A stretch of DNA of 64,000 nt from Bacteroidales bacterium (GTDB lineage: Bacteria; Bacteroidota; Bacteroidia; Bacteroidales; VadinHA17), in assembly GCA_035299385.1 (NCBI GenBank), contig DATGWQ010000268.1, forward strand, positions 82,524-146,523, read 5' to 3'. The notes under the pieces were generated by a model. The model was not told where the DNA came from. It was given only the letters and a program-made list of their open reading frames with translations, and did not search any database. The translations under genes and the position numbers were made by a program. Every line of letters starts with the position of its first letter. Position 1 is the stretch's first letter. Below, in pieces: positions 3,319 through 37,708 of this stretch.

Positions 3319-4467
3319 ATGAAGTTTAGTGTCGACATAAATATCCGGAAAGTCCCTTTCATATGGAACGTGGGAATTGCCATGATAATTCTGTCTGCAG
3401 GATGTGTAGCCCTGTATACTCCTGAAATAACCGAAACTACCGACCTGCTTGTTGTAAGGGGCACAATAACAGACCAGGGCGGGAAGGACACAATAAAGCT
3501 GTCGAGGTCATACCCTGTCGGAAATGTCAGGGATGCAAGGCCTGTCGGCGGAGCCAATGTGTCAATTAGCGATAACCTGGGAAATGTGATCCGCCTCCTG
3601 GAAGCTTCCATGGGAAATTATGTTACACCCGACGGCTTCAGTGGCATTACCGGAAGATTCTACAGGCTCCATATCTCAGGCATCAGGGACAAAACTTACG
3701 AGTCCGATCCGATGGAAATGAGGCCGGTTCCGCCGATAGATTGTGTTTATTATAATAGGATTGTGATCGATCCGCCGGACGAATTCTTTAAAGGAAATGA
3801 CGCGTGCCAGGTTTACCTCGACACTCATGACCCTTCAGGCAATTGCCGGTGGTTCAGGTGGAGCTTCACAGAAACATGGATGTTCAGGCTCGATTTTGAC
3901 GTTCCGAACAAAATATGCTGGATAAACGCCAATTCTCACGATATAAATATCAAAAGCACATCGGCATATTCCGGATCTGTAATAGAGCGGCAACCTGTAA
4001 AATATATTTCGAATACAAGCGACAGGCTGAAGCTGCGCTACAGCATTCTTGTAAACCAGTTTTCGCTGAACGAGGATGAATACCTGTATTGGGAAAAGGT
4101 CCGTAACATAGTCACAAACACAGGAGGTTTGTACGACATGATACCTGCAGCTCTTCCGAACAATCTCCGCTGCATCCAGGACCCCGACGAAACCGTGCTC
4201 GGCTATTTCAGCGTATCGGCAAAAACATCAAAGAGAATATTTATCCAGGATGAATTCGCAGGTATAATTGATGCTTACTCAAACTGCATCGAAGGCAACA
4301 CGTCAAACAACCAGAGGCCTCCGTCGGACAAACCATTCTGGGTACTGCTGAAACATCCATGCTCCCTGCCATGCATCCCTTATTTTGACTATACGACAAG
4401 AGAGGAATGTGCCGACTGCACTTTGCGGGGAAGCAACAAAAGACCTGATTTCTGGACTGACAAATGA
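3319..4467 (+). CDS. DUF4249-like lipoprotein, partner of the preceding TonB-dependent receptor
   Basis: Lipobox-like LSAGC near the N-terminus. Size, position directly after a CarboxypepD_reg-type receptor and general sequence character fit DUF4249. The family assignment is from memory, not a search. Confidence 0.55.
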   Translation: MKFSVDINIRKVPFIWNVGIAMIILSAGCVALYTPEITETTDLLVVRGTITDQGGKDTIKLSRSYPVGNVRDARPVGGANVSISDNLGNVIRLLEASMGNYVTPDGFSGITGRFYRLHISGIRDKTYESDPMEMRPVPPIDCVYYNRIVIDPPDEFFKGNDACQVYLDTHDPSGNCRWFRWSFTETWMFRLDFDVPNKICWINANSHDINIKSTSAYSGSVIERQPVKYISNTSDRLKLRYSILVNQFSLNEDEYLYWEKVRNIVTNTGGLYDMIPAALPNNLRCIQDPDETVLGYFSVSAKTSKRIFIQDEFAGIIDAYSNCIEGNTSNNQRPPSDKPFWVLLKHPCSLPCIPYFDYTTREECADCTLRGSNKRPDFWTDK

Positions 4468-26329: not shown

Positions 26330-28234
26330 ATGAATACCGTAATATACAGAGAGATTCTCGAAAAATACTGGGGGTATAAATCCTTCAGGCCACTGCAGGA
26401 AGAAATAATCAGAAGCATCGCAGAGGGTAAGGACACCCTTGCGCTGATGCCAACAGGAGGCGGCAAATCGATTACCTTCCAGGTTCCTGCCATGGCTATG
26501 AATGGTATTTGCCTTGTGATCACACCTCTGATAGCGCTTATGAAGGACCAGGTGGCCAGGCTCAACAGCCTTGGTATAAAAGCGCTTGCCCTTCATTCAG
26601 GCATGTTGCATGAAGAGATCGACAATGCTATTGAAAATGCCATTTTCGGTGACTATAAATTTCTTTATGTATCACCTGAAAGGCTCTGGGCAAGGGATTT
26701 TACCGGAAGGATCGGCCGTTTTGACCTTTCTCTTGTGACTATCGATGAAGCGCACTGCATCTCTCAATGGGGTTACGATTTCAGGCCGTCTTACCTTAAA
26801 ATTGCTGAGATCAGGAATTATATACAGGGAAATGTTCCATTCCTTGCACTTACTGCTTCTGCAACCCGGGAAGCAGCGGATGATATAATGGAAAAACTTG
26901 GCTTCAGGCAGAAGAACCTGCTGAAGACGAGCTTTGAAAGGAGTAATATAACATACCTCGTAAGGAAAATCGAGGACAAGGGTGCATACCTTGCATCGGC
27001 ATTGCAGAAAGCAGGCGGCAGCGGAATTGTTTACGTCAGAAGCAGAAAGAAATGCAGGGAAGTTGCCGAAAACCTGACCGCAGGAGGGATTAGTGCGGAT
27101 TTTTATCATGCGGGGCTTTCAAATGAGCTGCGCGACAGCAGGCAGGTTGCCTGGACAGGCGATAAAACCAGGGTCATCGTCGCCACAAATGCTTTCGGAA
27201 TGGGAATTGACAAGCCTGATGTCAGATTCGTGATACACTGGGATGTGCCTGATTCAATAGAAAATTACTTCCAGGAAAGCGGTAGGGCAGGGCGCGACGG
27301 GAAACCTGCATCTGCCGTGCTTCTGTTTTCACCTGCCGATCGCAGCCGGCTGACCGATTCGCTTAGGAAGAAATTCCCGCCGATCGAGAAGATAAAAGAC
27401 ATATATGAGGCTCTTTGTAACTACCTTCAGATACCTGTTGGGTCAGGGCGTGAAATTGTATACGACTTCAGCATGCGGGAATTCCTTTCAAAGTACCGCT
27501 TGCCGGTGACCGAGACGGTGAACAGCCTCCAATTCCTTCAGAGGGAAGGATATATGGAATTCACGGAGGAAATCAACAATCCATCAAGAGTGCACTTTAT
27601 CGTGGGCCGTGACGACCTGTATAAATTCCAGGTTGAAAATGAAGTTTTCGACGGGTTTATTAAGCTTCTGCTACGGTCATATACCGGGATGTTCAGCGAG
27701 TATGTGCCAATCAATGAAGATGATCTTTCACGGAAATCAGGTTCTGACAGGGATACCATCTACCATTATCTTCTCAAACTTTCTTCATTCAATATAATAA
27801 GGTACATCCCGGGAAAGAAAACTTCACTGGTGATATTCAGGGAGGAACGTCTCGAGAGAAAAGCCCTGCTGATATCACCCGGCAATTACCTGCATGTAAG
27901 GGAACGCTATGAAGAAAGGCTGAGCAGGATGCTCGATTATGCTGAAACAACAGAACGCTGCAGGCAGCAGGCATTGCTTAATTACTTCGGGGAGGAATCG
28001 GGCAGGTGCGGCCACTGTGATTTTTGCCGGAATAGCAAAAATGCCGTAAAGGAAAGTTATGATTCAATAGAAGAGAGGATAATTCATCTTCTTGAGGAAA
28101 GAAAGGCAAGTGCCCGGGAAATTATCAGTGAGCTTCAGCTGGAAGAGGATCATGCGGTAAAGGTGATACGCAGTCTCCTGGACAGTGACAGGATAAGGAT
28201 GGGCACTGACGGAAGATACCGGCTTCCGGACTAA
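26330..28234 (+). CDS. recQ: RecQ-family ATP-dependent DNA helicase (atypical C-terminal layout)
   Basis: FRPLQEEII, PTGGGKS, DEAHCISQWGYDFRP, QESGRAGRDG. The Zn motif CRQQALLNYFGE...CGHCDFC lies about 230 aa after motif VI. I take the ATG at 26330 rather than the TTG at 26279. Confidence 0.85.
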   Translation: MNTVIYREILEKYWGYKSFRPLQEEIIRSIAEGKDTLALMPTGGGKSITFQVPAMAMNGICLVITPLIALMKDQVARLNSLGIKALALHSGMLHEEIDNAIENAIFGDYKFLYVSPERLWARDFTGRIGRFDLSLVTIDEAHCISQWGYDFRPSYLKIAEIRNYIQGNVPFLALTASATREAADDIMEKLGFRQKNLLKTSFERSNITYLVRKIEDKGAYLASALQKAGGSGIVYVRSRKKCREVAENLTAGGISADFYHAGLSNELRDSRQVAWTGDKTRVIVATNAFGMGIDKPDVRFVIHWDVPDSIENYFQESGRAGRDGKPASAVLLFSPADRSRLTDSLRKKFPPIEKIKDIYEALCNYLQIPVGSGREIVYDFSMREFLSKYRLPVTETVNSLQFLQREGYMEFTEEINNPSRVHFIVGRDDLYKFQVENEVFDGFIKLLLRSYTGMFSEYVPINEDDLSRKSGSDRDTIYHYLLKLSSFNIIRYIPGKKTSLVIFREERLERKALLISPGNYLHVRERYEERLSRMLDYAETTERCRQQALLNYFGEESGRCGHCDFCRNSKNAVKESYDSIEERIIHLLEERKASAREIISELQLEEDHAVKVIRSLLDSDRIRMGTDGRYRLPD

Positions 28235-28527
28235 TTAAGGTATTTCACAAGACCTGAATTCTGAAAATTCATAACATTCATCTCAATTGTTTCACGGGAC
28301 TTTTTACCGGTTTCTCCGGGTCCGTGTGTGCAAAACCTGCATCCGCAGTTGTTGCTGAAATACTTGTTACCTTCATGAATCGCATCTCTCAGCGAAATGA
28401 ATTTTCCGAGGAAAATCCTTTTATTCTCAGCCGGTAAAAACGGACAACCGTCCATGTGAACCGAATGCAGTTCATTCAACCCTGGTCTTACTACCATGTA
28501 GAAGCTGCTTAAATGTGCTTTTGACAT
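28231..28527 (-). CDS. small Cys/His-rich protein, putative metal-binding
   Basis: 98 aa. HSVHMDGCPFLP...CGCRFCTHG gives a possible H/C4 metal site, loosely like Ada-type Zn-binding small proteins. Copy 3 of the promoter-like motif precedes it by 44 nt. Confidence 0.6.
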   Translation of the reverse strand: MSKAHLSSFYMVVRPGLNELHSVHMDGCPFLPAENKRIFLGKFISLRDAIHEGNKYFSNNCGCRFCTHGPGETGKKSRETIEMNVMNFQNSGLVKYLN

Positions 28528-28571: not shown

Positions 28572-28603
28572 GTTTAATAGGAAATGGGTCAAAATTGTTA
28601 CCC
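28572..28603 (-). promoter_or_regulatory. ECF-type promoter-like motif, copy 3 (faces the 98-aa gene)
   Basis: The minus strand reads GGGTAACAATTTTGACCCATTTCCTATTAAAC. It is identical to copy 1 at positions 1-9 and 18-32 and differs only in an 8-nt spacer. An AAAACA flank precedes it. Confidence 0.6.
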
Positions 28604-28742
28604 TGTTTTCCTGATTATTTTCAAAAAACCGTATTAATCTTACGATTCCGGGATAATTAATATTTTTTAACATTTATAGTTATCTGTATATCAGGTAATT
28701 AAAAAATATTTTCGTTTTTTTTCATTTTTTATGCCAAAAAAG

Positions 28743-28774
28743 GGGTAACAAAACGAGGGCATTTCCTATTAAAC
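28743..28774 (+). promoter_or_regulatory. ECF-type promoter-like motif, copy 1 (faces the 49-aa ORF and the CHAT gene)
   Basis: GGGTAACAAAACGAGGGCATTTCCTATTAAAC. There is a GTAAC-type -35 and, 16 nt later, CTATTA. It ends 48 nt upstream of the ATG at 28823. Confidence 0.6.
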
Positions 28775-28822
28775 AGAAAAGCGCAACCAAAAATTTGATA
28801 TACAACTAAAAACTGAAAAACA

Positions 28823-28972
28823 ATGAAAACAACTAACAAAAACACCAGGACTGTAAAAACTACCGATCGCTTCTTTACTGAAACATCTGCAGAAGGTATT
28901 CTGAGCATATTAATGGGAGAATGTGATCCCACCGAACCGATCATTATTATACCACCGGCCCCAAAGATTTGA
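28823..28972 (+). CDS. unannotated 49-aa ORF (MKTTNKNTRTVKTTDRFFTETSAEGILSILMGECDPTEPIIIIPPAPKI); alternatively a non-coding ~260-nt RNA
   Basis: ATG-initiated ORF below the 60-aa track cutoff. It lies between motif copy 1 and a textbook intrinsic terminator (29007-29041). Coding status is unproven. Confidence 0.45.
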   Translation: MKTTNKNTRTVKTTDRFFTETSAEGILSILMGECDPTEPIIIIPPAPKI

Positions 28973-29006
28973 TTTCTGCTATTTGTTTACTCATCTGAAG
29001 AAAGGT

Positions 29007-29041
29007 AAGGTGCATTCACGGGTTGAATGCACCTTTTTTTT
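29007..29041 (+). terminator. intrinsic terminator after the 49-aa ORF, overlapping the CHAT gene start
   Basis: AAGGTGCATTC (29007-29017), loop ACGGGTT, GAATGCACCTT (29025-29035), then a run of T to 29041. This is a perfect 11-bp stem plus a U-tract. Confidence 0.85.
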
Positions 29042-31812
29042 ATTTTTACTGCAAAACGGACGTTTTGAGAATTTGCCTTATTGTGGTTTTTCTTTTGTTT
29101 CTTCTTTCTGCGAACGGATATGCTTCAGGTTTGCCACCGGAAAAAGACTTCAGCTATTATATGAACTCTTTTGTTGAAAATTATTACCATGGTGATTTTG
29201 TCAAATGCGAGGAAGCGATGCTCTCCGCCTCAGCTCTGGACCTGCCGGAATACTATAAGGCATCTATTTATAACAATCTGGGAGTAACTTATTATTTGCT
29301 TGGAAATTATGAAGATGCACTGAAAGCTTATTCCAGGATTGAAACCATGAACCTTACACCTGATGAGATCAATTCATTAACACCCCCCGGACTTGTCAAC
29401 AGGGCTCTTATCTATGGGAAGAGGAAGATGTATGACAAGGCAGTGTCCTATTATGAAAGAGCCATAAGAATACTGGAGCAGACAGCAAAGAGTGATGCAT
29501 CTTTGTTTGAAAGACTGGCATTAGCCTACCATAACATGGGGACCGTTTATTCTGAAAGAGGTGAATTCAGAACTGCCCTGGTGCATTTTAATGCAAGTCT
29601 CTCTATAATGGAGAAGCATAAAATTCAAAATAAATCACTTCCGCTATCGACAATTGCCAAATGCTATGCAAAGCTTAATGACCGCCCTCTTGCGGAAGCT
29701 TATTTCAAAAGATGCCTTTCAACGGCAACAATAGAGCATGGGACCGGGTATTACAACCTTTATGAATTCCATGTTTTATATGCCGATTTTCTGAGTTCTG
29801 AGAAAAAGTATGCAGAGGCCCTGGCTATATACCGCAGGGTAATGCTCCATTTCCTGGAGACCTACGGTTCAAAGAATGCCAATACATCCGGTGGCTTCAG
29901 GAACCTTGGTGAATTGAAATTAAAAACCGGCGAATACGATTCATCCCTTTACTTCTACCAGAGATCCCTTATTTCGATAGTCGGTAATTTCAATGATGAA
30001 AATATTGAAACTAACCCCGGCATCGATTCATCGTTCTTAAATGTCAGGCTTCTTGAAAATCTGAAAGGTAAATCGAAGGTTCTCGAAGCGCTCGCAGCGA
30101 CACGGAGATCACCCGATGAGCGGATCAGAACATTGAAAATGAGCCTCTCCACACTGGAACTGGCAATGGATCTTACTGATATCATGCGGAACAACTTCCC
30201 GACAGAAGAAAGTAAAATGTATATCTCTGAAATCGAGAAAGAAACCTATATATCCGGCATAAGGATCGCCTCTGTGCTGTATACCCTGACCGGAAGTGAT
30301 TCTCTTCTTTCACGGATGTACGGGTTTGTCCAAAGATCAAAAGCTGCTGTTCTGCGAGATGAGATCATCAGCAACAAGCTGGTTTATTCTGCTACGCTTC
30401 CGGATTCGGTAATAGAAAAGGAACACAGGCTGGCGTCAAACATTGCCGGTTACAGGATGCTTATATACAATGAGGAGAACAGCGAGCGACCGGACAAAAG
30501 CAGGATAAACCTCTGGAAAGATGAAGCTTTCGAGATGAGCCGTCAGAAGGAAATTCTTGACAGGGTAATTACAGATGCAATTCCCGGTTATCCGGATCTC
30601 CCGGCAAAAACGACACCTCTTCCCCTGAAGGAGATAATGGGCAATCTTGAAAGGGATGAAATAATAATAGATTACTCGGTTTCAGGTTCATACAATGACG
30701 GAAAGAGGGATTTATTCATTTTTCTAATCGACAGGAGGCACTTGAAGTTTTACAGGTCTGAGACAGACTCGCTTTTTATTAAAAATGCACTGGTGCTCAG
30801 GAATACTTCAGATCCGTCGATCCGTTCGGGCAGGAAAGAATCCGGAAGCTATCTGTCTGCCCTTTTTTACATGTATAATACTCTTATACAACCAGTTGGC
30901 AAGGAATTGAAAAATAAAAGACTGATTATTATACCCGATGAAGAAATAAGCTGGCTTCCTTTCGAGGCATTCCTCACAAAGGAACCGGAAAGTAACAGTG
31001 TTGATTTTGACGGACTTCATTTTTTGATCTATGATCATTCGATCTCGCATGCATACTCATCCTCGCTGATACCGGTCCCATCGAGAGCGCAAAAGGAGCC
31101 GGTATATGCATTTTCCCCTTTTTATGAAAGCCAACAGCATAGTCCGCTCAGGGGCAGCATTAAAGAAATTGAATCGGTAAACAGCATCATGGGGGGGAAA
31201 GTATTCACAGGCGCCGCAGCGAGCCGTAACAAATTTATCAACTACATGAAGGAAAGCGTGATTTTTCACCTGGCCATGCATTCTCTTTATGACAGCACCA
31301 ATTCGCTCTATTCATACCTTTTGTTTGACAGCAACGGAAGCGATTCATCAAAATTATACAATTACGAGATCAGCCTCGGAAGGATATCAACGCCCATGAT
31401 TGTCCTGAGCTCATGTAATTCAGGAGCCGGAACGCTGAACAGGAGCGAGGGCCTGATGAGTATTGCCAGAAGCTTCATCCTCGCGGGGGCTTCCTCTGTA
31501 GTAAGGACTGCCTGGGAGGTAAATGATGATTCCGGTTCCGAAATTGTCACCCGGTTCTATTATTATCTTTCAAGAGGTTACAGCAAGGACAGGGCGCTAA
31601 GGCTGGCTAAAATTGATTTTATCGAAAAAGCACCACCTTCATTCCGTGATCCATATTACTGGGCAGCTTACGAAGTACTGGGCGACAATTCACCTGTAAG
31701 GCACGGCAAAGGCAAAATTGTAACATTTGTTACAATTCCGTTATTATTGATGATTGCAGGAGTTTATCTTTATTTAAGACGCCGCAGAATTTCAGCTGCC
31801 CGTTTGCTGTAG
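29023..31812 (+). CDS. membrane-anchored TPR-CHAT (caspase-like) protease
   Basis: N-terminal hydrophobic signal LRICLIVVFLLFLLSANGYASG and multiple TPR-like repeats. The C-terminal CHAT domain has His (HLAMH, 31267-31281) and Cys (LSSCNSG, Cys codon 31414-31416). A C-terminal TM helix is followed by RRRR. The only possible starts that keep the signal peptide are TTG codons (29023 or 29065). Confidence 0.85.
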   Translation: MNAPFFYFYCKTDVLRICLIVVFLLFLLSANGYASGLPPEKDFSYYMNSFVENYYHGDFVKCEEAMLSASALDLPEYYKASIYNNLGVTYYLLGNYEDALKAYSRIETMNLTPDEINSLTPPGLVNRALIYGKRKMYDKAVSYYERAIRILEQTAKSDASLFERLALAYHNMGTVYSERGEFRTALVHFNASLSIMEKHKIQNKSLPLSTIAKCYAKLNDRPLAEAYFKRCLSTATIEHGTGYYNLYEFHVLYADFLSSEKKYAEALAIYRRVMLHFLETYGSKNANTSGGFRNLGELKLKTGEYDSSLYFYQRSLISIVGNFNDENIETNPGIDSSFLNVRLLENLKGKSKVLEALAATRRSPDERIRTLKMSLSTLELAMDLTDIMRNNFPTEESKMYISEIEKETYISGIRIASVLYTLTGSDSLLSRMYGFVQRSKAAVLRDEIISNKLVYSATLPDSVIEKEHRLASNIAGYRMLIYNEENSERPDKSRINLWKDEAFEMSRQKEILDRVITDAIPGYPDLPAKTTPLPLKEIMGNLERDEIIIDYSVSGSYNDGKRDLFIFLIDRRHLKFYRSETDSLFIKNALVLRNTSDPSIRSGRKESGSYLSALFYMYNTLIQPVGKELKNKRLIIIPDEEISWLPFEAFLTKEPESNSVDFDGLHFLIYDHSISHAYSSSLIPVPSRAQKEPVYAFSPFYESQQHSPLRGSIKEIESVNSIMGGKVFTGAAASRNKFINYMKESVIFHLAMHSLYDSTNSLYSYLLFDSNGSDSSKLYNYEISLGRISTPMIVLSSCNSGAGTLNRSEGLMSIARSFILAGASSVVRTAWEVNDDSGSEIVTRFYYYLSRGYSKDRALRLAKIDFIEKAPPSFRDPYYWAAYEVLGDNSPVRHGKGKIVTFVTIPLLLMIAGVYLYLRRRRISAARLL

Positions 31813-32669
31813 AATCCCTCAGTGCCGGCAAGAGCCCCGAAGTACTTTGCAGACTCAGGCTTATTCCCTTTTTTCAGCCAGGCAAGACCGAGATACCACC
31901 TGGTTTCCTTAAAATATGCATCCTGCTGTTGGGCGGCCTGTTCAAGGGCTGAAATTGCCTGGTCGGTATTATTGTTTTCGAGCTCTGACAATCCCAGATA
32001 AAATAACGATGCACTGTTCTCATTCAATGCCTGCCGGAATGAAGCAGCCGCTTCAGGGTACATGGAGGCCTTATAATAATCAATGGCCTGCTCAAAATTT
32101 GCCTGGACTGAACTATTCCCTCTTGTAACGGACGTCATAGCAGGGAATGATTCATAGTATTTGCTGAATAACCGTTCAGGGGATGATGATGGAGCAAGAG
32201 CAGCGAAAAAGATCATTATGCCGATCAATGCTGCGGCCGCCATGTAAGCAACGCGACGCAAAGGAACAATTTTCGGCCGGGATGTTTTTTCCCCGACAGG
32301 TGCTGCATTCAATGAATCAGATATGAAGCTTCTTCGTTCTTCATCTTCAGGTGACAGCTTTGCCTCTGACTGTTTTTTCTGATGCCACTCATTTACCCAT
32401 TCAACAGACAACAGATCGATGTCGCTTTGCCTGAATTCGATCTTTATATCCTTAAAATCTTCAGGATTGAATGTGTTGCGCGACAGGGAATCCTGTACAA
32501 ATTTCCTGTCGCTTTCAGATTTCCTGCTTTCCTGATGGTTTTTTGCAATTGCGGAGCTGACATGAGCCCTGGTTTCCTCAAGAAAAGGATCAGAGCATAT
32601 CTCTTCAAAGTCGGCGAGAGCGCGCATATGCACTTTTATCATGTCATTATTTAAATTTCCGGATTGCAT
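31770..32669 (-). CDS. anti-sigma-factor-like single-pass membrane protein with periplasmic TPR domain
   Basis: Lies directly downstream of the ECF sigma gene. It has a ~145-aa cytoplasmic N-domain, a TM helix VAYMAAAALIGIMIFFAALAP, and a C-terminal TPR-like region (YYKASMYPEAAASFRQAL..., LGLAWLKKGN). An alternative start is at 32642. Confidence 0.6.
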   Translation of the reverse strand: MQSGNLNNDMIKVHMRALADFEEICSDPFLEETRAHVSSAIAKNHQESRKSESDRKFVQDSLSRNTFNPEDFKDIKIEFRQSDIDLLSVEWVNEWHQKKQSEAKLSPEDEERRSFISDSLNAAPVGEKTSRPKIVPLRRVAYMAAAALIGIMIFFAALAPSSSPERLFSKYYESFPAMTSVTRGNSSVQANFEQAIDYYKASMYPEAAASFRQALNENSASLFYLGLSELENNNTDQAISALEQAAQQQDAYFKETRWYLGLAWLKKGNKPESAKYFGALAGTEGFYSKRAAEILRRLK

Positions 32670-32706
32670 CTCATCATCTTTTTATCATACAATTCTGGCG
32701 TCAGCT

Positions 32707-33300
32707 TCACTTTACAACAGCTTTTACTACATATTCGGATTTTACTATATTAATGTATCCGGGATGCTCTTTTACCCTGCGGGCAAAATCATTTTGCGCT
32801 TCCCATTTCTTTTTTCTTACATATCCGTATGTATACCCAAGCCTTTCTGCAATTTCCTGGGCAGATACATCCTGCCAGTAGAGATTAAGGATGTTCCTGC
32901 TTGCTTCATCGAGGGTTTCATAAACCTCTTTGAAAATATCATCGTAAAGCTTGCGGTCGATTGCTTCGGAAATGTCTTTCTCAACTGCAGGTTCATTATT
33001 TTTTGCACGGTAATTTGATGCCGCCTTTCTTTTGTCAAGAACGGTTTTCCAGAGGTTTTCGCAGACACAGTATAAATATGTCTTGAATTTGCACTGTAGG
33101 ACAAAGTCAGGATCATCTATCTTTTCAAGCATTATTACGAGCCCGTCCTGGAAAACATCCTGTGCATCTTCAGATGAACCACCATTCTGAAATACCATCA
33201 TCCTGATGAGAGGCAGGTACCTTTCGGAAAGATACCTGACAACGTAGCTTTGACGTTTCCTGAGACAATCAATTATCTCTATGTCGCTGAATTCTCTCAA
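32707..33300 (-). CDS. ECF-type sigma-70 family RNA polymerase sigma factor
   Basis: 197 aa. Region-2-like DAQDVFQDGLVIMLEKI and region-4 HTH SAQEIAERLGYTYGYVRKKKWEAQ. Confidence 0.85.
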   Translation of the reverse strand: MREFSDIEIIDCLRKRQSYVVRYLSERYLPLIRMMVFQNGGSSEDAQDVFQDGLVIMLEKIDDPDFVLQCKFKTYLYCVCENLWKTVLDKRKAASNYRAKNNEPAVEKDISEAIDRKLYDDIFKEVYETLDEASRNILNLYWQDVSAQEIAERLGYTYGYVRKKKWEAQNDFARRVKEHPGYINIVKSEYVVKAVVK

Positions 33301-33344
33301 TTAGGATCTAAGTTTTATTGCAGTATGGAGGTAGCGTATTCTAA

Positions 33345-33375
33345 CAAAATTAAATAAAAATCATTAAGAAGCAAG
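33345..33375 (-). promoter_or_regulatory. housekeeping (sigma-A type) promoter candidate for the sigma/anti-sigma operon
   Basis: The minus strand reads cTTG, a 19-nt spacer, then TAATTTTG (matches TAnnTTTG). The box ends 45 nt upstream of the sigma ATG at 33300. No copy of the GGGTAAC motif faces the sigma gene. Confidence 0.4.
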
Positions 33376-33411
33376 AAGATGAAAAATTTTTTAAAAATTT
33401 TCTCAAAAACA

Positions 33412-33443
33412 GGGTAACAAAACAGGGGCATTTCCTATTAAGC
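33412..33443 (+). promoter_or_regulatory. ECF-type promoter-like motif, copy 2 (faces the PAS histidine kinase)
   Basis: GGGTAACAAAACAGGGGCATTTCCTATTAAGC, with 29 of 32 positions identical to copy 1. It ends 109 nt upstream of the kinase ATG at 33553. Confidence 0.6.
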
Positions 33444-33501: not shown

Positions 33502-33545
33502 TCTGTCGTTTTTACGGGGGAAACGACGGAATTATGTTTTATTTA
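33502..33545 (+). terminator. terminator/attenuator-like hairpin in the kinase leader
   Basis: TCTGTCGTTT (33502-33511) pairs with AAACGACGGA (33521-33530). That gives 10 bp including one G-U pair, with loop TTACGGGGG. ATTATGTTTTATTT follows. Confidence 0.4.
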
Positions 33546-33552
33546 AAAGGGG

Positions 33553-34761
33553 ATGAAGATGCCTGTTGAAAAGAATGTACGCGAAGATCTGATGAGTAAA
33601 CCTGATCCGTCGGGAACGGTTCAGAAAAAAATTGCACTCGTATCAGGAATTACCGATCGCTTATACCGTCTTATAGAGAAGGACGAGGGTGTTCCTTTCC
33701 ACCTGGTCTATGACAATGAGTCTGGAAGCGGACACTATTTATTTATTGGAGAAGGGATCAGGGATATTACCGGGTTCGAACCGGGTAGTTTCACGGAAAG
33801 GACACTAAATGACATTACCAGGGAAGTTGTGCCCTTATCGGAAAATGTGCCGGCCGATAATTGCATGCTGAGAAATTTGATTCTGCAGGGCGAAATACAG
33901 GAGTACAGGATTGAAAGGTGCATAGTGTCCAGGTCGGGAGAACGAAAATGGATAAGGGAAACTGCCGTCCAGCATGCAGAATCAGGTTTTGTGACAGGAC
34001 TGATCGGCATCTATCATGATATCACGGAGAAAAAAAAATACAGCATCAAGCTCGAAAATGCAATCAGAGAAGCCTCGGAATCAGAACGTTTGAAGAATAA
34101 TTTCCTGCAGAACATATCACATGAAGTCAGGACTCCGCTGAATGCAATTGTGGGATTTTCAGCCATGCTTAGCGAACCGGAGCTGGATTATGGAAAAAAG
34201 GTGGAATTTGCCAGGATGATAAACACGAGCACAGATGAGCTTCTTAACATAATGGAGAATATTATCGAAATTTCACGAATAGATGCAGGATCAGAAGAGA
34301 TCACTGTAAAAGATGTGAAACCCTCTGAGCTTCTGAATAAAATATATAAGACCTTTTATAATAAGGCGCTTGAAAATAATATATCGCTTGAATGCTCCAT
34401 CCCCCCGGATTCTGAAATTTCTATCCCGACAGACGGGTACAAGCTGTTCCAGGTGATCTATAACCTGACAGGCAATGCCATTAAATTCACACAAGAAGGA
34501 AAAGTTGAATTCGGCTATAATATCCTTGGGAACAATATCGAATTCTATGTGTCTGATACCGGCATAGGAATCTCAGACCACGACAAGCCCAAAATATTCA
34601 ACAAATTTTACCAGGCAGACTCTGGTTCGACAAGGAGATACGCCGGAACAGGGCTCGGATTAACAATCGCCAAAGCCTATGCGGAAATGCTTGGAGGCTC
34701 ATTAAGCTTCCAATCCTCAGAGGGTGAAGGCTCCGTATTCAGGTTTACCCTTCCGTTTTAA
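33553..34761 (+). CDS. cytoplasmic PAS-domain sensor histidine kinase (orphan)
   Basis: No TM segment. PAS-like region, H-box SHEVRTPLNAIVGFSAML, HATPase N/G boxes (NLTGNAIKFT, DTGIGI, GTGLGLTIAK). No response regulator gene is adjacent. Confidence 0.88.
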   Translation: MKMPVEKNVREDLMSKPDPSGTVQKKIALVSGITDRLYRLIEKDEGVPFHLVYDNESGSGHYLFIGEGIRDITGFEPGSFTERTLNDITREVVPLSENVPADNCMLRNLILQGEIQEYRIERCIVSRSGERKWIRETAVQHAESGFVTGLIGIYHDITEKKKYSIKLENAIREASESERLKNNFLQNISHEVRTPLNAIVGFSAMLSEPELDYGKKVEFARMINTSTDELLNIMENIIEISRIDAGSEEITVKDVKPSELLNKIYKTFYNKALENNISLECSIPPDSEISIPTDGYKLFQVIYNLTGNAIKFTQEGKVEFGYNILGNNIEFYVSDTGIGISDHDKPKIFNKFYQADSGSTRRYAGTGLGLTIAKAYAEMLGGSLSFQSSEGEGSVFRFTLPF

Positions 34762-34807
34762 GGATCAGACTGTTTCAATTCGTATCTTTGTCCTCCAAAT
34801 TGTAAAT

Positions 34808-35428
34808 ATGGAGAACGAAAATATATTATACAGCAAAGCATTCCGGTTAAGCATCTTCACAATAGGCTATAATATCATAGAGGGAGTTGTGTCGGCCTTT
34901 TTCGGTTACCAGGATGACACCCTGGCATTATTCGGATTCGGGCTCGACAGCTTTATTGAAGTACTGTCCGGGACAGGCGTCCTTCTGATGATTGTAAGGA
35001 TGAGAAGAAACCCGCTTGCAGCGCGTTACAGGTTCGAGATCACAGCCCTCAGGATCACAGGTATTGCTTTTTACCTTCTCGCAACAGGGCTTTTTGCCGG
35101 TATTGTGATGAACATAATAAATGACAGGAAGCCTGAGACAACTTTCCCGGGAATCGTTATATCTGTCCTTTCAATCATTGTGATGATATGGCTTATGAAC
35201 GCCAAGATGAAAGTCGGAAAGAAACTCGATTCCGAACCGATAATCTGCGACAGTCACTGCACTCGGATGTGTGTTTACATGTCAGTTGTGTTGCTGATCT
35301 CAAGCCTGATCTATGAGCTCACCGGTTTTAAATACGCTGATTCAATAGGAGCGGCCGGCCTGGTATGGCTTTCGGTGCTGGAAGGGAAAGAGGCTCTGGA
35401 AAAAGCCGGTGCAAAGTTTGCACTTTAA
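34808..35428 (+). CDS. cation-diffusion-facilitator-like membrane protein (TM domain only)
   Basis: 206 aa from the ATG at 34808 (MENENILY). About 6 TM helices, with CDF-like motifs NIIEGVVSAFFGY and FGLDSFIE. No C-terminal cytoplasmic domain. Confidence 0.55.
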   Translation: MENENILYSKAFRLSIFTIGYNIIEGVVSAFFGYQDDTLALFGFGLDSFIEVLSGTGVLLMIVRMRRNPLAARYRFEITALRITGIAFYLLATGLFAGIVMNIINDRKPETTFPGIVISVLSIIVMIWLMNAKMKVGKKLDSEPIICDSHCTRMCVYMSVVLLISSLIYELTGFKYADSIGAAGLVWLSVLEGKEALEKAGAKFAL

Positions 35429-35449
35429 CCTGATTTATTACATTTACAG

Positions 35450-37708
35450 GTGAAAGATTTTTCATCGATGCTGCTGCCGGAAAGATTCAGGAAAGAAAGG
35501 GAAAAGGAGAATCAGGACATACCTGAAGAGGCCGGGAAAACCCAGGGTGAAAACGCTCCCGAAGATAAAGACGAAGAAGCAGGAAGCTTCCTTGATGTAA
35601 TCGAACGGATTGCAAGACAGCAGAATGCTCTGCAGTCAGCCGGGCAGCAATTTGAAGAAAAAGACCTCAGCAATATGTCTCCCGGCGATTTCCCTGATGT
35701 GGAAATCACCGGTCCGATGGACACCAAAATGCGTGAGCTTGCAGAAATTGTTCATTCCATCGAGAACCGTGTTCTTGTCAGTCCGTCAGTAGAGCTAAAG
35801 AAATCATATAAAATAAATTACAGGGATCAGCTGAACCCTGCACAGCTTGCAGCTGTAACGACTATCAACGGCCCTCTGCTCGTCATTGCCGGCGCAGGCA
35901 GCGGCAAAACACGCGTAATAGTTCATCGTGTCGCCTTCATGATTGAAAACAGTATTGATCCCAACGAAATACTGCTGCTGACATTCACGAGGAAAGCTGC
36001 TGCCGAGATGCTCGGCAGGGTGCAGCACCTTTTACAGAACGAGAGTGCCACAAAAGTGTACGGCGGAACATTCCATTCATTCGCGAACTATGTCCTGAGG
36101 AAATATTCTGCCCTGCTTGGCATCCCTCCGAATTTCACGATAATCGATTCCGAGGATTCAGCCGATACGATAGACCTGATCAGGTCTGAGCTAAAGATTG
36201 ATAAGAAAGAAAAAGCTTTTCCGAAGAAAAACCGCCTCCAGGAAATATTTTCATCCGCAAGGAACAGGAATATTCCGATCAGGGATGTAATATTCAATGA
36301 TTTCAGCGGTCTTAAGGAATTCATCGAGCAGATTGAGCTCATTTACATCGGGTACGTAAAATATAAAAAAACATGCAGGATCTTTGATTATGATGACCTG
36401 ATGGAAGTGCTGAGGGATTCACTTCGCGATAATAATGTTTTCAGAAGCCGAATGAATGAAAAGTTCCGGTATGTAATGGTGGATGAATACCAGGATACTA
36501 ATATCATTCAGAAGGAGATTACCGAATACCTTGCCGGAGAATACGGGAATATCATGGTCGTGGGCGACGACTCACAGAGCATCTATTCTTTCAGGGGAGC
36601 GAATTACGAGAACATTCTCCGTTTTCCCCAGAAGTATCCCGATTGCAGGGTAATTAAAATCGAGGAGAATTACCGGAGCAACCAGAAGATACTCGATTTT
36701 ACGAACCAGATAATCGAAAATGCCCGCATCGGCTACAGGAAGCAGCTTTACTCAAGCATTCCTTATACAGAGCTGCCGGTGGTAAGGAAATTCTATGACC
36801 AGCAGGCTGAAGCTGCTTTCATTGTCGACAGGATCCTCGATTACCGCGAAAAAGGAATATCCCTTAACCAGGTGGCTGTTCTGGTCCGTGCATTCTGGCA
36901 TGCCCGGTACATTGAAACTGAGCTGAACAGGAGAAGCATTCCTTATGTTGCTGTGGGCGGTCTTGCATTCAACGAAAGGAAGCACGTCAAGGATGTGATC
37001 TCCTACCTGAGGCTCGTTCTAAATCCATATGATGCAGTGGCATGGCACAGGGTGCTCAGGTACCTTCCGGGTGTCGGAATGGTCACTGCAGGGAAGATAA
37101 TCCAGGCTATTGTTTCAGGGAAAGAACCGGAAACCTTTTTCAGCAAAACCAAATTTGCAGAAGGCCTCCATGCCCTGCTCGTTATGATCAGGAATGCTTC
37201 TGAAGTGCATGGAATACCTCAGAAAGTTGAAATAGTAAAAGAGTACTATCTTCCCATACTCAGGTCAGCAGAACCTGACTTCCAGGTGAGGATACTCGAT
37301 ATCAATGTACTTATCGAGCTTGCATCGGGATATGAATCACTGGATAAGTTCCTTACGGATTTCGCACTCGATCCGCCGTCAAAAAAGTTCGGGACCAAAA
37401 CAGTTCCGCTTATCGATGAATCTGAAGACAAGCCGCTTACGATATCCACGATCCACTCGGCAAAAGGACTCGAATGGTATGCTGTTTTCATCCCGCACGC
37501 ACTCGACGGGTTGATACCATCGGTGAGGTCAGTCAGCAACCTCGAGGAGATTGAAGAAGAAAGGAGGCTTTTTTATGTGGCATGCAGTAGGGCGAAGCAG
37601 GACCTCATAATAACGATGCCTTCATATGTTTCCAATTATAATGCTTTCCTTTCTTATCCGAGCAGGTTCCTTGTCGAGATAAGCAGGGACAAGTTCAGCT
37701 TCAGGTGA
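35450..37708 (+). CDS. UvrD/PcrA/Rep-family DNA helicase with ~110-aa charged N-terminal extension
   Basis: LNPAQLAAV, AGAGSGKT, MVDEYQDTN, GDDSQSIYSFRGA, TIHSAKGLEW, YVACSRAK. GTG start at 35450; an alternative ATG is at 35468. Confidence 0.9.
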   Translation: MKDFSSMLLPERFRKEREKENQDIPEEAGKTQGENAPEDKDEEAGSFLDVIERIARQQNALQSAGQQFEEKDLSNMSPGDFPDVEITGPMDTKMRELAEIVHSIENRVLVSPSVELKKSYKINYRDQLNPAQLAAVTTINGPLLVIAGAGSGKTRVIVHRVAFMIENSIDPNEILLLTFTRKAAAEMLGRVQHLLQNESATKVYGGTFHSFANYVLRKYSALLGIPPNFTIIDSEDSADTIDLIRSELKIDKKEKAFPKKNRLQEIFSSARNRNIPIRDVIFNDFSGLKEFIEQIELIYIGYVKYKKTCRIFDYDDLMEVLRDSLRDNNVFRSRMNEKFRYVMVDEYQDTNIIQKEITEYLAGEYGNIMVVGDDSQSIYSFRGANYENILRFPQKYPDCRVIKIEENYRSNQKILDFTNQIIENARIGYRKQLYSSIPYTELPVVRKFYDQQAEAAFIVDRILDYREKGISLNQVAVLVRAFWHARYIETELNRRSIPYVAVGGLAFNERKHVKDVISYLRLVLNPYDAVAWHRVLRYLPGVGMVTAGKIIQAIVSGKEPETFFSKTKFAEGLHALLVMIRNASEVHGIPQKVEIVKEYYLPILRSAEPDFQVRILDINVLIELASGYESLDKFLTDFALDPPSKKFGTKTVPLIDESEDKPLTISTIHSAKGLEWYAVFIPHALDGLIPSVRSVSNLEEIEEERRLFYVACSRAKQDLIITMPSYVSNYNAFLSYPSRFLVEISRDKFSFR

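Follow-up and report, generated by a model that had tools for sequence, protein, structure and literature searches.

A conserved bipartite motif, predicted to be an ECF-type promoter, at a sigma factor and TPR-CHAT locus of uncultured Bacteroidales

The locus

We examined a 64,000-nt stretch of DNA (the window) from a Bacteroidales bacterium of the VadinHA17 lineage (contig DATGWQ010000268.1, assembly GCA_035299385.1), in which three copies of a 32-nt promoter-like motif accompany six genes, one of them encoding an extracytoplasmic function (ECF)-like sigma factor. The sigma gene (32707..33300, - strand) encodes 197 aa with sigma-70 regions 2 and 4 only, as judged from Pfam, TIGR02937 and its homologues. 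Directly downstream lies the gene for a 299-aa single-pass membrane protein with a C-terminal TPR domain (31770..32669, -), a candidate anti-sigma factor by its position, topology and conserved synteny. Two further genes encode a 49-aa peptide (28823..28972, +), which leader and core comparison identifies as a divergent member of a double-glycine-type leader family, and a TPR-CHAT protease that has a signal peptide at its N-terminus and a membrane anchor at its C-terminus (29065..31812, +; the open reading frame (ORF) is open from 29023 and the likely start is TTG at 29065). The set is completed by a 98-aa Cys/His-rich protein with the pattern H..H...GCPF...C.C..C (28231..28527, -), a conserved member of the predicted regulon, and by a soluble PAS-HisKA-HATPase histidine kinase with no adjacent response regulator (33553..34761, +), assigned from domain and profile matches. 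An original prediction for this DNA had named an ECF sigma, CHAT and a PAS kinase, and these identities hold, the proteins being a sigma-70 region 2/4 protein, a TPR-CHAT protein and a PAS-HisKA-HATPase kinase.

Three copies of a bipartite motif

The pattern GGGTAACAA-N8-CATTTCCTATTAA matches the 64-kb window three times with 0 mismatches each, compared to a chance expectation of 0.00 in 100 dinucleotide-preserving shuffles, and a position-weight scan of the whole window returned the same three sites only. Copy 3 (28572..28603, -; GGGTAACAA TTTTGACC CATTTCCTATTAAAC; 37.5 bits) is the predicted sigma-dependent promoter of the 98-aa Cys/His gene, copy 1 (28743..28774, +; 36.9 bits) that of the 49-aa peptide gene, and copy 2 (33412..33443, +; 36.5 bits) that of the PAS histidine kinase gene, which is divergent from the sigma gene. 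Their 30-nt cores occupy 28574-28603(-), 28743-28772(+) and 33412-33441(+), so that pattern matching bears out the positions and strands first proposed for all three, and the distances of 44, 48 and 109 nt proposed between motif and start codon (Cys/His protein, peptide and kinase, respectively) are correct. Copies 1 and 3 differ at 8/8 spacer positions (AACGAGGG versus TTTTGACC), as had also been claimed. An AAAACA flank had been described before every copy; it precedes copies 2 and 3, and copy 1 has AAAAAAG.

Alignment of 150 nt around each copy confined the likeness to the motif and about 25 nt of A/T-rich sequence upstream, where similarity is weak (75-76%). These A/T-rich stretches, at 28604..28628 (-) for copy 3, 28718..28742 (+) for copy 1 and 33387..33411 (+) for copy 2, are UP-element-like in this flank alignment and in the light of the A-tracts described below. 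Other scans added little. Rfam returned nothing at gathering thresholds across the window and one chance-level match only between 28 and 34 kb, a tRNA scan found none, and a generic promoter scan, whose consensus is of E. coli type, was uninformative (19 found versus 13.9 expected).

Conservation of the motif beside homologous sigma genes

For comparison we gathered 80 metagenome loci via alignment of sigma homologues and trained a position-weight matrix on 43 unique sites. The motif is conserved in more than 100 related Bacteroidales loci, before genes for the peptide, the Cys/His protein and the sensor kinase. Information profiles of 43 and 160 unique sites display the same bipartite conservation, with GGTAACAA followed by about 8 freely varying nucleotides and then ccTATTCCtATtAAAC, and several positions outside the seed pattern are near-invariant (A7, 43/43; T20, 41/43; A29, 43/43). 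The core common to all gene classes is GGTAACAA-N16-ATtAAAC. Scores from a scan of 1.23 million positions in 85 sequences were bimodal: 103 sites exceeded 14 bits, and just 11 or so scored from 10 to 14.

Enough sequence upstream of sigma was available at 79 sigma-homologue loci (40-83% identity), and at 72 of these the motif lies upstream of the sigma gene and no more than 600 bp away. It is divergent from the sigma gene in 62 of the 79, where a median of 106 bp separates it from the sigma start, and lies in sigma's own orientation, about 370 nt upstream, in 10 of the 79, all from a clade of 41-48% identity. Across all sequences, 161 of 173 strong sites fall outside crude ORFs, versus 81% of bases that fall inside them. 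The original prediction had held that a genuine promoter should be intergenic, directed toward genes and found near homologous sigma loci, all of which these counts bear out, and the contrary outcome that it named, many intragenic sites without orientation, did not appear. With its conserved boxes, variable spacer and intergenic, gene-directed sites, the motif behaves like a bipartite promoter rather than a duplicated segment or a dispersed repeat, in line with the initial proposal.

Of the genes that lie downstream of the sites, 44 encode the kinase, about 12 the peptide, about 11 the Cys/His protein and 11 sigma itself. From motif end to ATG the span is 21-196 nt overall and varies with gene class, with medians of 28 nt for the peptide, 76 nt for the Cys/His protein and 145 nt for the kinase. 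The motif stands 21-47 nt upstream of the peptide ATG in 27 unique relatives and at the orthologous Cys/His position in 17, where the ATG follows after 30-94 nt. On a 1.86-Mb contig with a 63%-identical sigma, the same six genes occur in the same arrangement with the motif at all three orthologous positions.

Two further features emerge from the larger comparison. Outside the matrix, the 160 unique sites carry phased A-tracts at -18..-15 (about 79% A) and -6..-4 from the motif and a T-tract at -33..-32, all of which would fit an UP-like element. The 3' end of the motif also differs by sigma clade, with C31 present at 75 of 78 sites in the main clade versus 5 of 11 in the distant clade, a shift measured on a small distant set with a matrix trained on the main clade.

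The sigma factor and its own promoter

Pfam places Sigma70_r2 at residues 26-92 and r4/r4_2 at residues 128-163 of the sigma factor, and the protein scores 62.2 bits against the TIGR02937 sigma70-ECF model (cut-off 42.9). No ECF subfamily or equivalog model matched at its cut-off, the best being TIGR02985 at 41.9 versus 126.4. With phmmer, a set of 1.84 billion representatives yielded only 3,514 relatives (E<=1e-3); hundreds of relatives at 60-83% identity are present in metagenomes, labelled merely as sigma-70 family proteins of Bacteroidales or Bacteroidetes. Four cysteines (C12, C70, C78 and C80) are invariant in 21 homologues of 60-80% identity, which is unusual for an ECF sigma factor and suggests that region 2 or its surroundings may hold a redox switch or a metal site.

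In the window's clade the motif points away from the sigma gene (62 loci), which has a promoter box of the housekeeping, Bacteroidetes sigma-A type instead (33345..33375, -; cTTG-N19-TAATTTTG). This box had been part of the original prediction; it is present as described, and its TAnnTTTG element is conserved in relatives. Of 76 unique upstream regions, 65 have the element on the sigma strand, 51 of them at -50..-41 from the start codon; the opposite strand gave 3 and shuffled sequence about 10. Because this box is conserved at the sigma gene, the window-clade sigma/membrane-protein pair looks constitutively transcribed, and we infer that it would be controlled post-translationally.

The sigma-oriented motif of the 41-48% identity clade would fit autoregulation, an ECF hallmark. 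In loci of this clade (L073, 6618-7001; L070, L072 and L074-L078) the gap of about 370 nt between motif and sigma gene contains no ORF, and a TAnnTTTG-like box lies nearer the sigma gene than the motif does, so that there is either a long leader or two promoters. One relative (L004, 13587-14944) encodes a further ECF sigma of conventional type (Sigma70_r2/r4_2), together with a zf-HC2 anti-sigma, directly 3' of the Cys/His gene; this pair is not conserved in the window.

Extent of the regulon

We also scanned one genome per GTDB species motif-first, with GGGTAACAA-N11-TTCCNATTAA, for which about 17-45 hits were expected by chance. The scan gave 91 stretches. About 8 of these are low-scoring and lie in unrelated taxa, consistent with chance, and the remainder come from Bacteroidales/Bacteroidia metagenome-assembled genomes. 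All reference assemblies with the motif in at least 3 loci have a sigma homologue beside one such locus. The nearest reference genome, MFD03899.bin.2.103 (73-75% DNA identity), has all three orthologous promoters.

Sites in the closest relatives are more numerous, with at least 14, 14, 8 and 7 in MFD03899.bin.2.103 and three other relatives, spread over different contigs. The additional sites precede genes for LytTR-domain proteins, GerE/LuxR-type and other small helix-turn-helix (HTH) proteins, 70-aa Cys/His paralogues, large secreted proteins, a radical SAM enzyme and an MvdD-like ATP-grasp enzyme. The original prediction spoke of a compact local regulon; its three local target genes are indeed conserved, but the closest relatives carry from 7 to at least 14 sites on several contigs. 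Because of these dispersed sites, the three in the window are probably only the local part of the predicted regulon.

Several arrangements in this set are of interest in their own right. In MFD03899.bin.2.103 (L139) tandem motif copies at 4125-4157 and 4286-4318 lie 160 bp apart upstream of one 76-aa gene, and in SMAG_U6955 (L093, L100) a separate motif copy belongs to each of several neighboring, paralogous secreted proteins (380-571 aa). A 1.7-kb stretch binned as Spirochaetota (L122, JBBRFT010000408.1) carries Bacteroidales peptide and Cys/His genes with both promoters, and its label is probably a binning error.

Alternative readings of the motif

The comparative sequence evidence gives good support to reading the motif as an ECF-type promoter, and we consider it probable that the sigma factor that reads it is the one encoded divergently beside it (32707-33300, -). 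Some points weigh against this reading. At about 14 nt, the conserved 3' block exceeds the usual length of an ECF -10, and part of it could be another protein's operator. Sigma and the rest of the module travel together, so the association of the motif cannot be split between them. The window-clade sigma gene has no motif of its own, so the usual argument from autoregulation is absent, and the neighboring membrane protein is assigned as anti-sigma from position and topology only, its N-terminal domain matching no known anti-sigma domain.

The unusual length of the 3' block for a -10 element raises the alternative that the motif, or this block of it, is the site of a non-sigma transcription factor (LytTR, LuxR-type or HTH) acting as operator or activator site at promoters of another holoenzyme. 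In relatives the motif is indeed followed by LytTR and GerE-type genes, and the combination of peptide, kinase and LytTR genes recalls peptide-pheromone circuits of Gram-positive bacteria. Yet neither the conserved module nor the window locus contains such a regulator gene, the two halves of the motif are neither direct nor inverted repeats of each other, and the 5' half is a textbook ECF -35. The site is also strictly directional at a fixed short distance to start codons, and no TAnnTTTG was seen by eye at the three window copies, a set-wide scan for such a box not having been run. We regard a non-sigma regulator as unlikely. An operator of the LytTR/AgrA type in particular, with two similar direct repeats of 9-10 bp about 12 bp apart, is out, GGTAACAA and TATTCCTATTAAAC being unrelated.

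It is similarly improbable that the motif, though a true alternative-sigma promoter, is served by a different sigma encoded elsewhere, with the adjacent sigma merely in the neighborhood of the regulon. The housekeeping promoter of the window-clade sigma gene, the many dispersed sites in relatives and the second ECF sigma/zf-HC2 pair beside the Cys/His gene of one relative would all suit such an arrangement. That second sigma, however, is conserved neither in the window nor in other loci, and the motif tracks homologues of the adjacent sigma down to about 41% identity, precedes the sigma gene itself in that clade and varies in its details with sigma clade. Finally, a short dispersed repeat or mobile-element remnant (such as terminal inverted repeats) with no promoter function is largely refuted and very improbable: copies 3 and 1 do form an inverted pair with copy 2 at 4.7 kb, and some genomes hold more than 10 copies, but the likeness stops at the motif and low-complexity A/T sequence, the spacer varies freely between fixed boxes, and the sites, almost never intragenic and always gene-directed, occupy orthologous positions before the same genes in loci whose sigma homologues share 40-80% identity.

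The peptide gene and the CHAT protease

The peptides encoded behind the motif form one family, with a leader ...LSxNEILxxxAMxxV(R/K)GG and a short core EGEGDGG-PIIIIPK; the window peptide has lost the GG (MGE). TIGR04149 matches the peptide weakly (13.9 bits, cut-off 25). In a sister clade (L129, 553-5297; L090, L114, L120, L135, L136, L073, L078 and L079) the peptide genes adjoin, divergently, genes for a C39-peptidase ABC exporter (738 aa) and HlyD (432 aa), and no C39-ABC/HlyD-type exporter lies near the peptide gene in the window. The sister-clade core reads ...PPTGGEDYPIDPFKK, with two peptide genes in tandem in L073, the one locus read in detail. An MvdD-like ATP-grasp gene (308 aa) is adjacent to the peptide genes in five sister-clade loci and carries its own motif copy. 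By its gene content this peptide/exporter/ATP-grasp locus looks like a graspetide-type peptide cluster.

Between the peptide and CHAT genes of the window, hairpin and terminator prediction gave a terminator-like hairpin with a 12-bp stem and a T-run (29007..29045, +). A comparable hairpin and T-run follow the peptide gene in about 19 of 27 relatives, and the stem sequences differ; different stems in the same place point to a conserved attenuator or terminator before CHAT. The hairpin separates the two genes, so that the CHAT gene would be reached only by read-through. Copy 1 had been proposed as the promoter of the 49-aa ORF plus CHAT; the motif does precede the peptide gene, but the hairpin intervenes before CHAT. 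The CHAT protease itself is probably active, because neither its His motif (HLAMHS) nor its Cys motif (VLSxCNSG) varies among 46 homologues. A PDB sequence search with the CHAT protein returned generic TPR matches only and no sequence-level match to a solved CHAT.

The candidate anti-sigma factor

The gene for the 299-aa membrane protein begins 38 nt downstream of the sigma gene, and this synteny is kept in relatives. The protein consists of a helical N-terminus, one membrane helix and the C-terminal TPR part, and from this position and topology we infer that it is the anti-sigma factor. Domain and profile-model searches detected no anti-sigma domain in it. In a structure model the TPR part is confident and residues 1-160 have a predicted local distance difference test score (pLDDT) below 50, so that the N-terminus offers no fold evidence for an anti-sigma domain. 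The N-terminal 135 residues contain a single Cys, which is not invariant.

The Cys/His protein, the kinase and neighboring genes

Family and domain searches with the 98-aa Cys/His protein assigned no family. Its AlphaFold model, built from only 6 homologues, is poor (mean pLDDT 48.6) and unusable. Paralogues of 70 aa occur in relatives.

The 109-nt leader between copy 2 and the kinase start contains a hairpin with a 12-bp stem, TCTGTCGTTTTTACGGGGGAAACGACGGA, at 33502-33530(+). Rfam has no match for it, and it may act as an attenuator. Relatives too have long kinase leaders, at the median given above. Cation-efflux (CDF) and UvrD-type helicase genes follow the kinase on the same strand (34724-37708, +), an order that close relatives share with short gaps (L001-L003, L146, L154); within this sub-clade alone, copy 2 may drive both genes together with the kinase. 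Inside the peptide and kinase genes lies a 15-nt direct repeat, AAcTACCGATCGCTT (28858-28872 and 33648-33662; 14/15 identical), both copies of which encode T-D-R; it is probably due to chance.

A proposed circuit

In the mechanism that we propose, GGTAACAA would serve as the -35 and the -10 would lie within ccTATTCCtATtAAAC, at an invariant core (t/g)ATtAA 17-18 nt after GTAAC, with the phased A-tracts upstream acting like an UP element. Sigma and the downstream membrane/TPR gene would be transcribed from the housekeeping promoter, so that sigma would always be made, and the membrane/TPR protein, as presumed anti-sigma, would keep it inactive. Once released, sigma would switch on the peptide gene, with attenuated read-through into the periplasmic TPR-CHAT gene, as well as the Cys/His protein gene and the PAS kinase gene, and most likely further sites elsewhere in the genome. 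More speculatively, the exported peptide, the periplasmic TPR-CHAT protease or both might control destruction of the anti-sigma and thereby create positive feedback.

Extended in this direction, the data allow a fuller scenario that we offer tentatively and hold to be rather doubtful as a whole. Here an exported double-glycine peptide would be sensed by the periplasmic TPRs of CHAT, of the anti-sigma or of both, and a caspase-like cut in the anti-sigma would free the divergent, Cys-rich sigma to drive GGTAACAA...ATTAAAC promoters, including the peptide's own (positive feedback). In some lineages the regulon would have grown to at least 14 promoters, whose genes encode numerous small DNA-binding proteins as well as peptide maturases of the MvdD-like ATP-grasp and radical SAM types. 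Such a circuit would be an undescribed one.

The motif provides a precise, testable promoter consensus for a widespread, uncharacterized sigma subfamily of uncultured Bacteroidales. Bacteroidetes have unusual housekeeping promoters and few of their alternative-sigma promoters have been mapped, and the consensus lets a regulon be read from sequence alone. Already it connects the sigma with a gene for a leader peptide and with a caspase-like protease of the periplasm, a kinase and a Cys/His protein, links that point to a possible ECF-based peptide-sensing circuit. In addition, the sigma/promoter pair could be an orthogonal expression part for Bacteroidetes.

Relationship to known systems

As a predicted promoter element the motif is ordinary for the ECF kind, and an ECF sigma promoter with its regulon is already a known kind of system. 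The peptide/CHAT/anti-sigma circuit around it appears undescribed: literature searches for a CHAT/peptide/sigma system in Bacteroidetes found nothing relevant, and the main text of the ECF re-classification paper makes no mention of CHAT.

Two characterized systems couple a TPR-CHAT protein to an ECF-type sigma. In the type III-E CRISPR 'Craspase', the TPR-CHAT protease Csx29 cleaves Csx30, which controls an RpoE-type sigma (PMC10028731). The locus described here likewise couples a TPR-CHAT protease genetically to an ECF-type sigma and a candidate sigma-binding partner, but its protease, with a signal peptide and membrane anchor, is predicted to be periplasmic. Membership in this group is rejected, with the Csx29 model scoring 18.6 bits against a cut-off of 300; the six module proteins matched no PADLOC defense model, and no dedicated cas/CRISPR scan of the window or loci was made. 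In Myxococcus xanthus, DdvS/DdvA pairs an ECF sigma with a transmembrane anti-sigma bearing a periplasmic TPR-CHAT, and caspase-like cleavage has been proposed as the first step of anti-sigma destruction (PMC11506125). ECF sigma, single-pass (candidate) anti-sigma and periplasmic TPR-CHAT occur in one unit here as well. Unlike in DdvA, TPR-CHAT and anti-sigma candidate are separate genes on opposite strands, the CHAT His/Cys pair is intact and invariant (the site of DdvA is incomplete) and the N-terminal domain of the anti-sigma candidate has no CHCC zinc motif; the predicted regulon comprises peptide, kinase and Cys/His protein, whereas that of DdvS/DdvA is CBASS/CRISPR. With the polypeptide split and the zinc motif missing, a DdvA-type TPR-CHAT anti-sigma is out.

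The peptide recalls the double-glycine-leader peptides of Bacteroidetes, namely the bacteroidetocins (PMC6671954) and precursors of ribosomally synthesized and post-translationally modified peptides of the TIGR04149 type, in its leader end (R/K)GG, its short core and the C39-ABC exporter and HlyD that adjoin the sister-clade genes. Its core, rich in Gly/Asp/Glu and then PIIIIP-K, is unlike that of the class IIa-like bacteroidetocins.

For the promoter itself the closest experimental precedent is sigma-D of Corynebacterium glutamicum, an ECF (group 4) sigma whose mapped promoters have GTAAC[A/G] at -35 and GAT at -10 (PMC6338062), which supports the original assignment of the GTAAC -35 to the ECF type. 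Common to both are a bipartite layout, an AAC-containing -35 (GTAACA is the same), a variable spacer and a sigma with regions 2 and 4 only. The (n)AT core 17-18 nt after GTAAC is about 1 nt closer than in C. glutamicum PrsdA, and the conserved 3' block (ccTATTCCtATtAAAC) is much longer. The sigma factor belongs to another phylum and another sigma subfamily (only the superfamily model TIGR02937 passes), and its gene in the window's clade is not autoregulated and has a housekeeping box instead.

In its predicted logic the circuit most resembles MibX/MibW (microbisporicin) and PspX/PspW (planosporicin), ECF sigma/anti-sigma pairs in feed-forward control of ribosomal peptide clusters (PMC4973701). 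In those systems the membrane anti-sigma is co-transcribed, several promoters share one consensus, and the exported peptide has been proposed as the trigger of sigma release (PMC4973701). In likeness to them, the motif here precedes a leader-peptide gene, and the sister-clade locus includes an exporter and a maturase. They are, however, actinobacterial lanthipeptide clusters in which a LuxR-type regulator drives the precursor operon and mibX regulates itself; here the predicted sigma promoter lies at the precursor gene, and the proposed circuit includes a CHAT protease and a PAS kinase.

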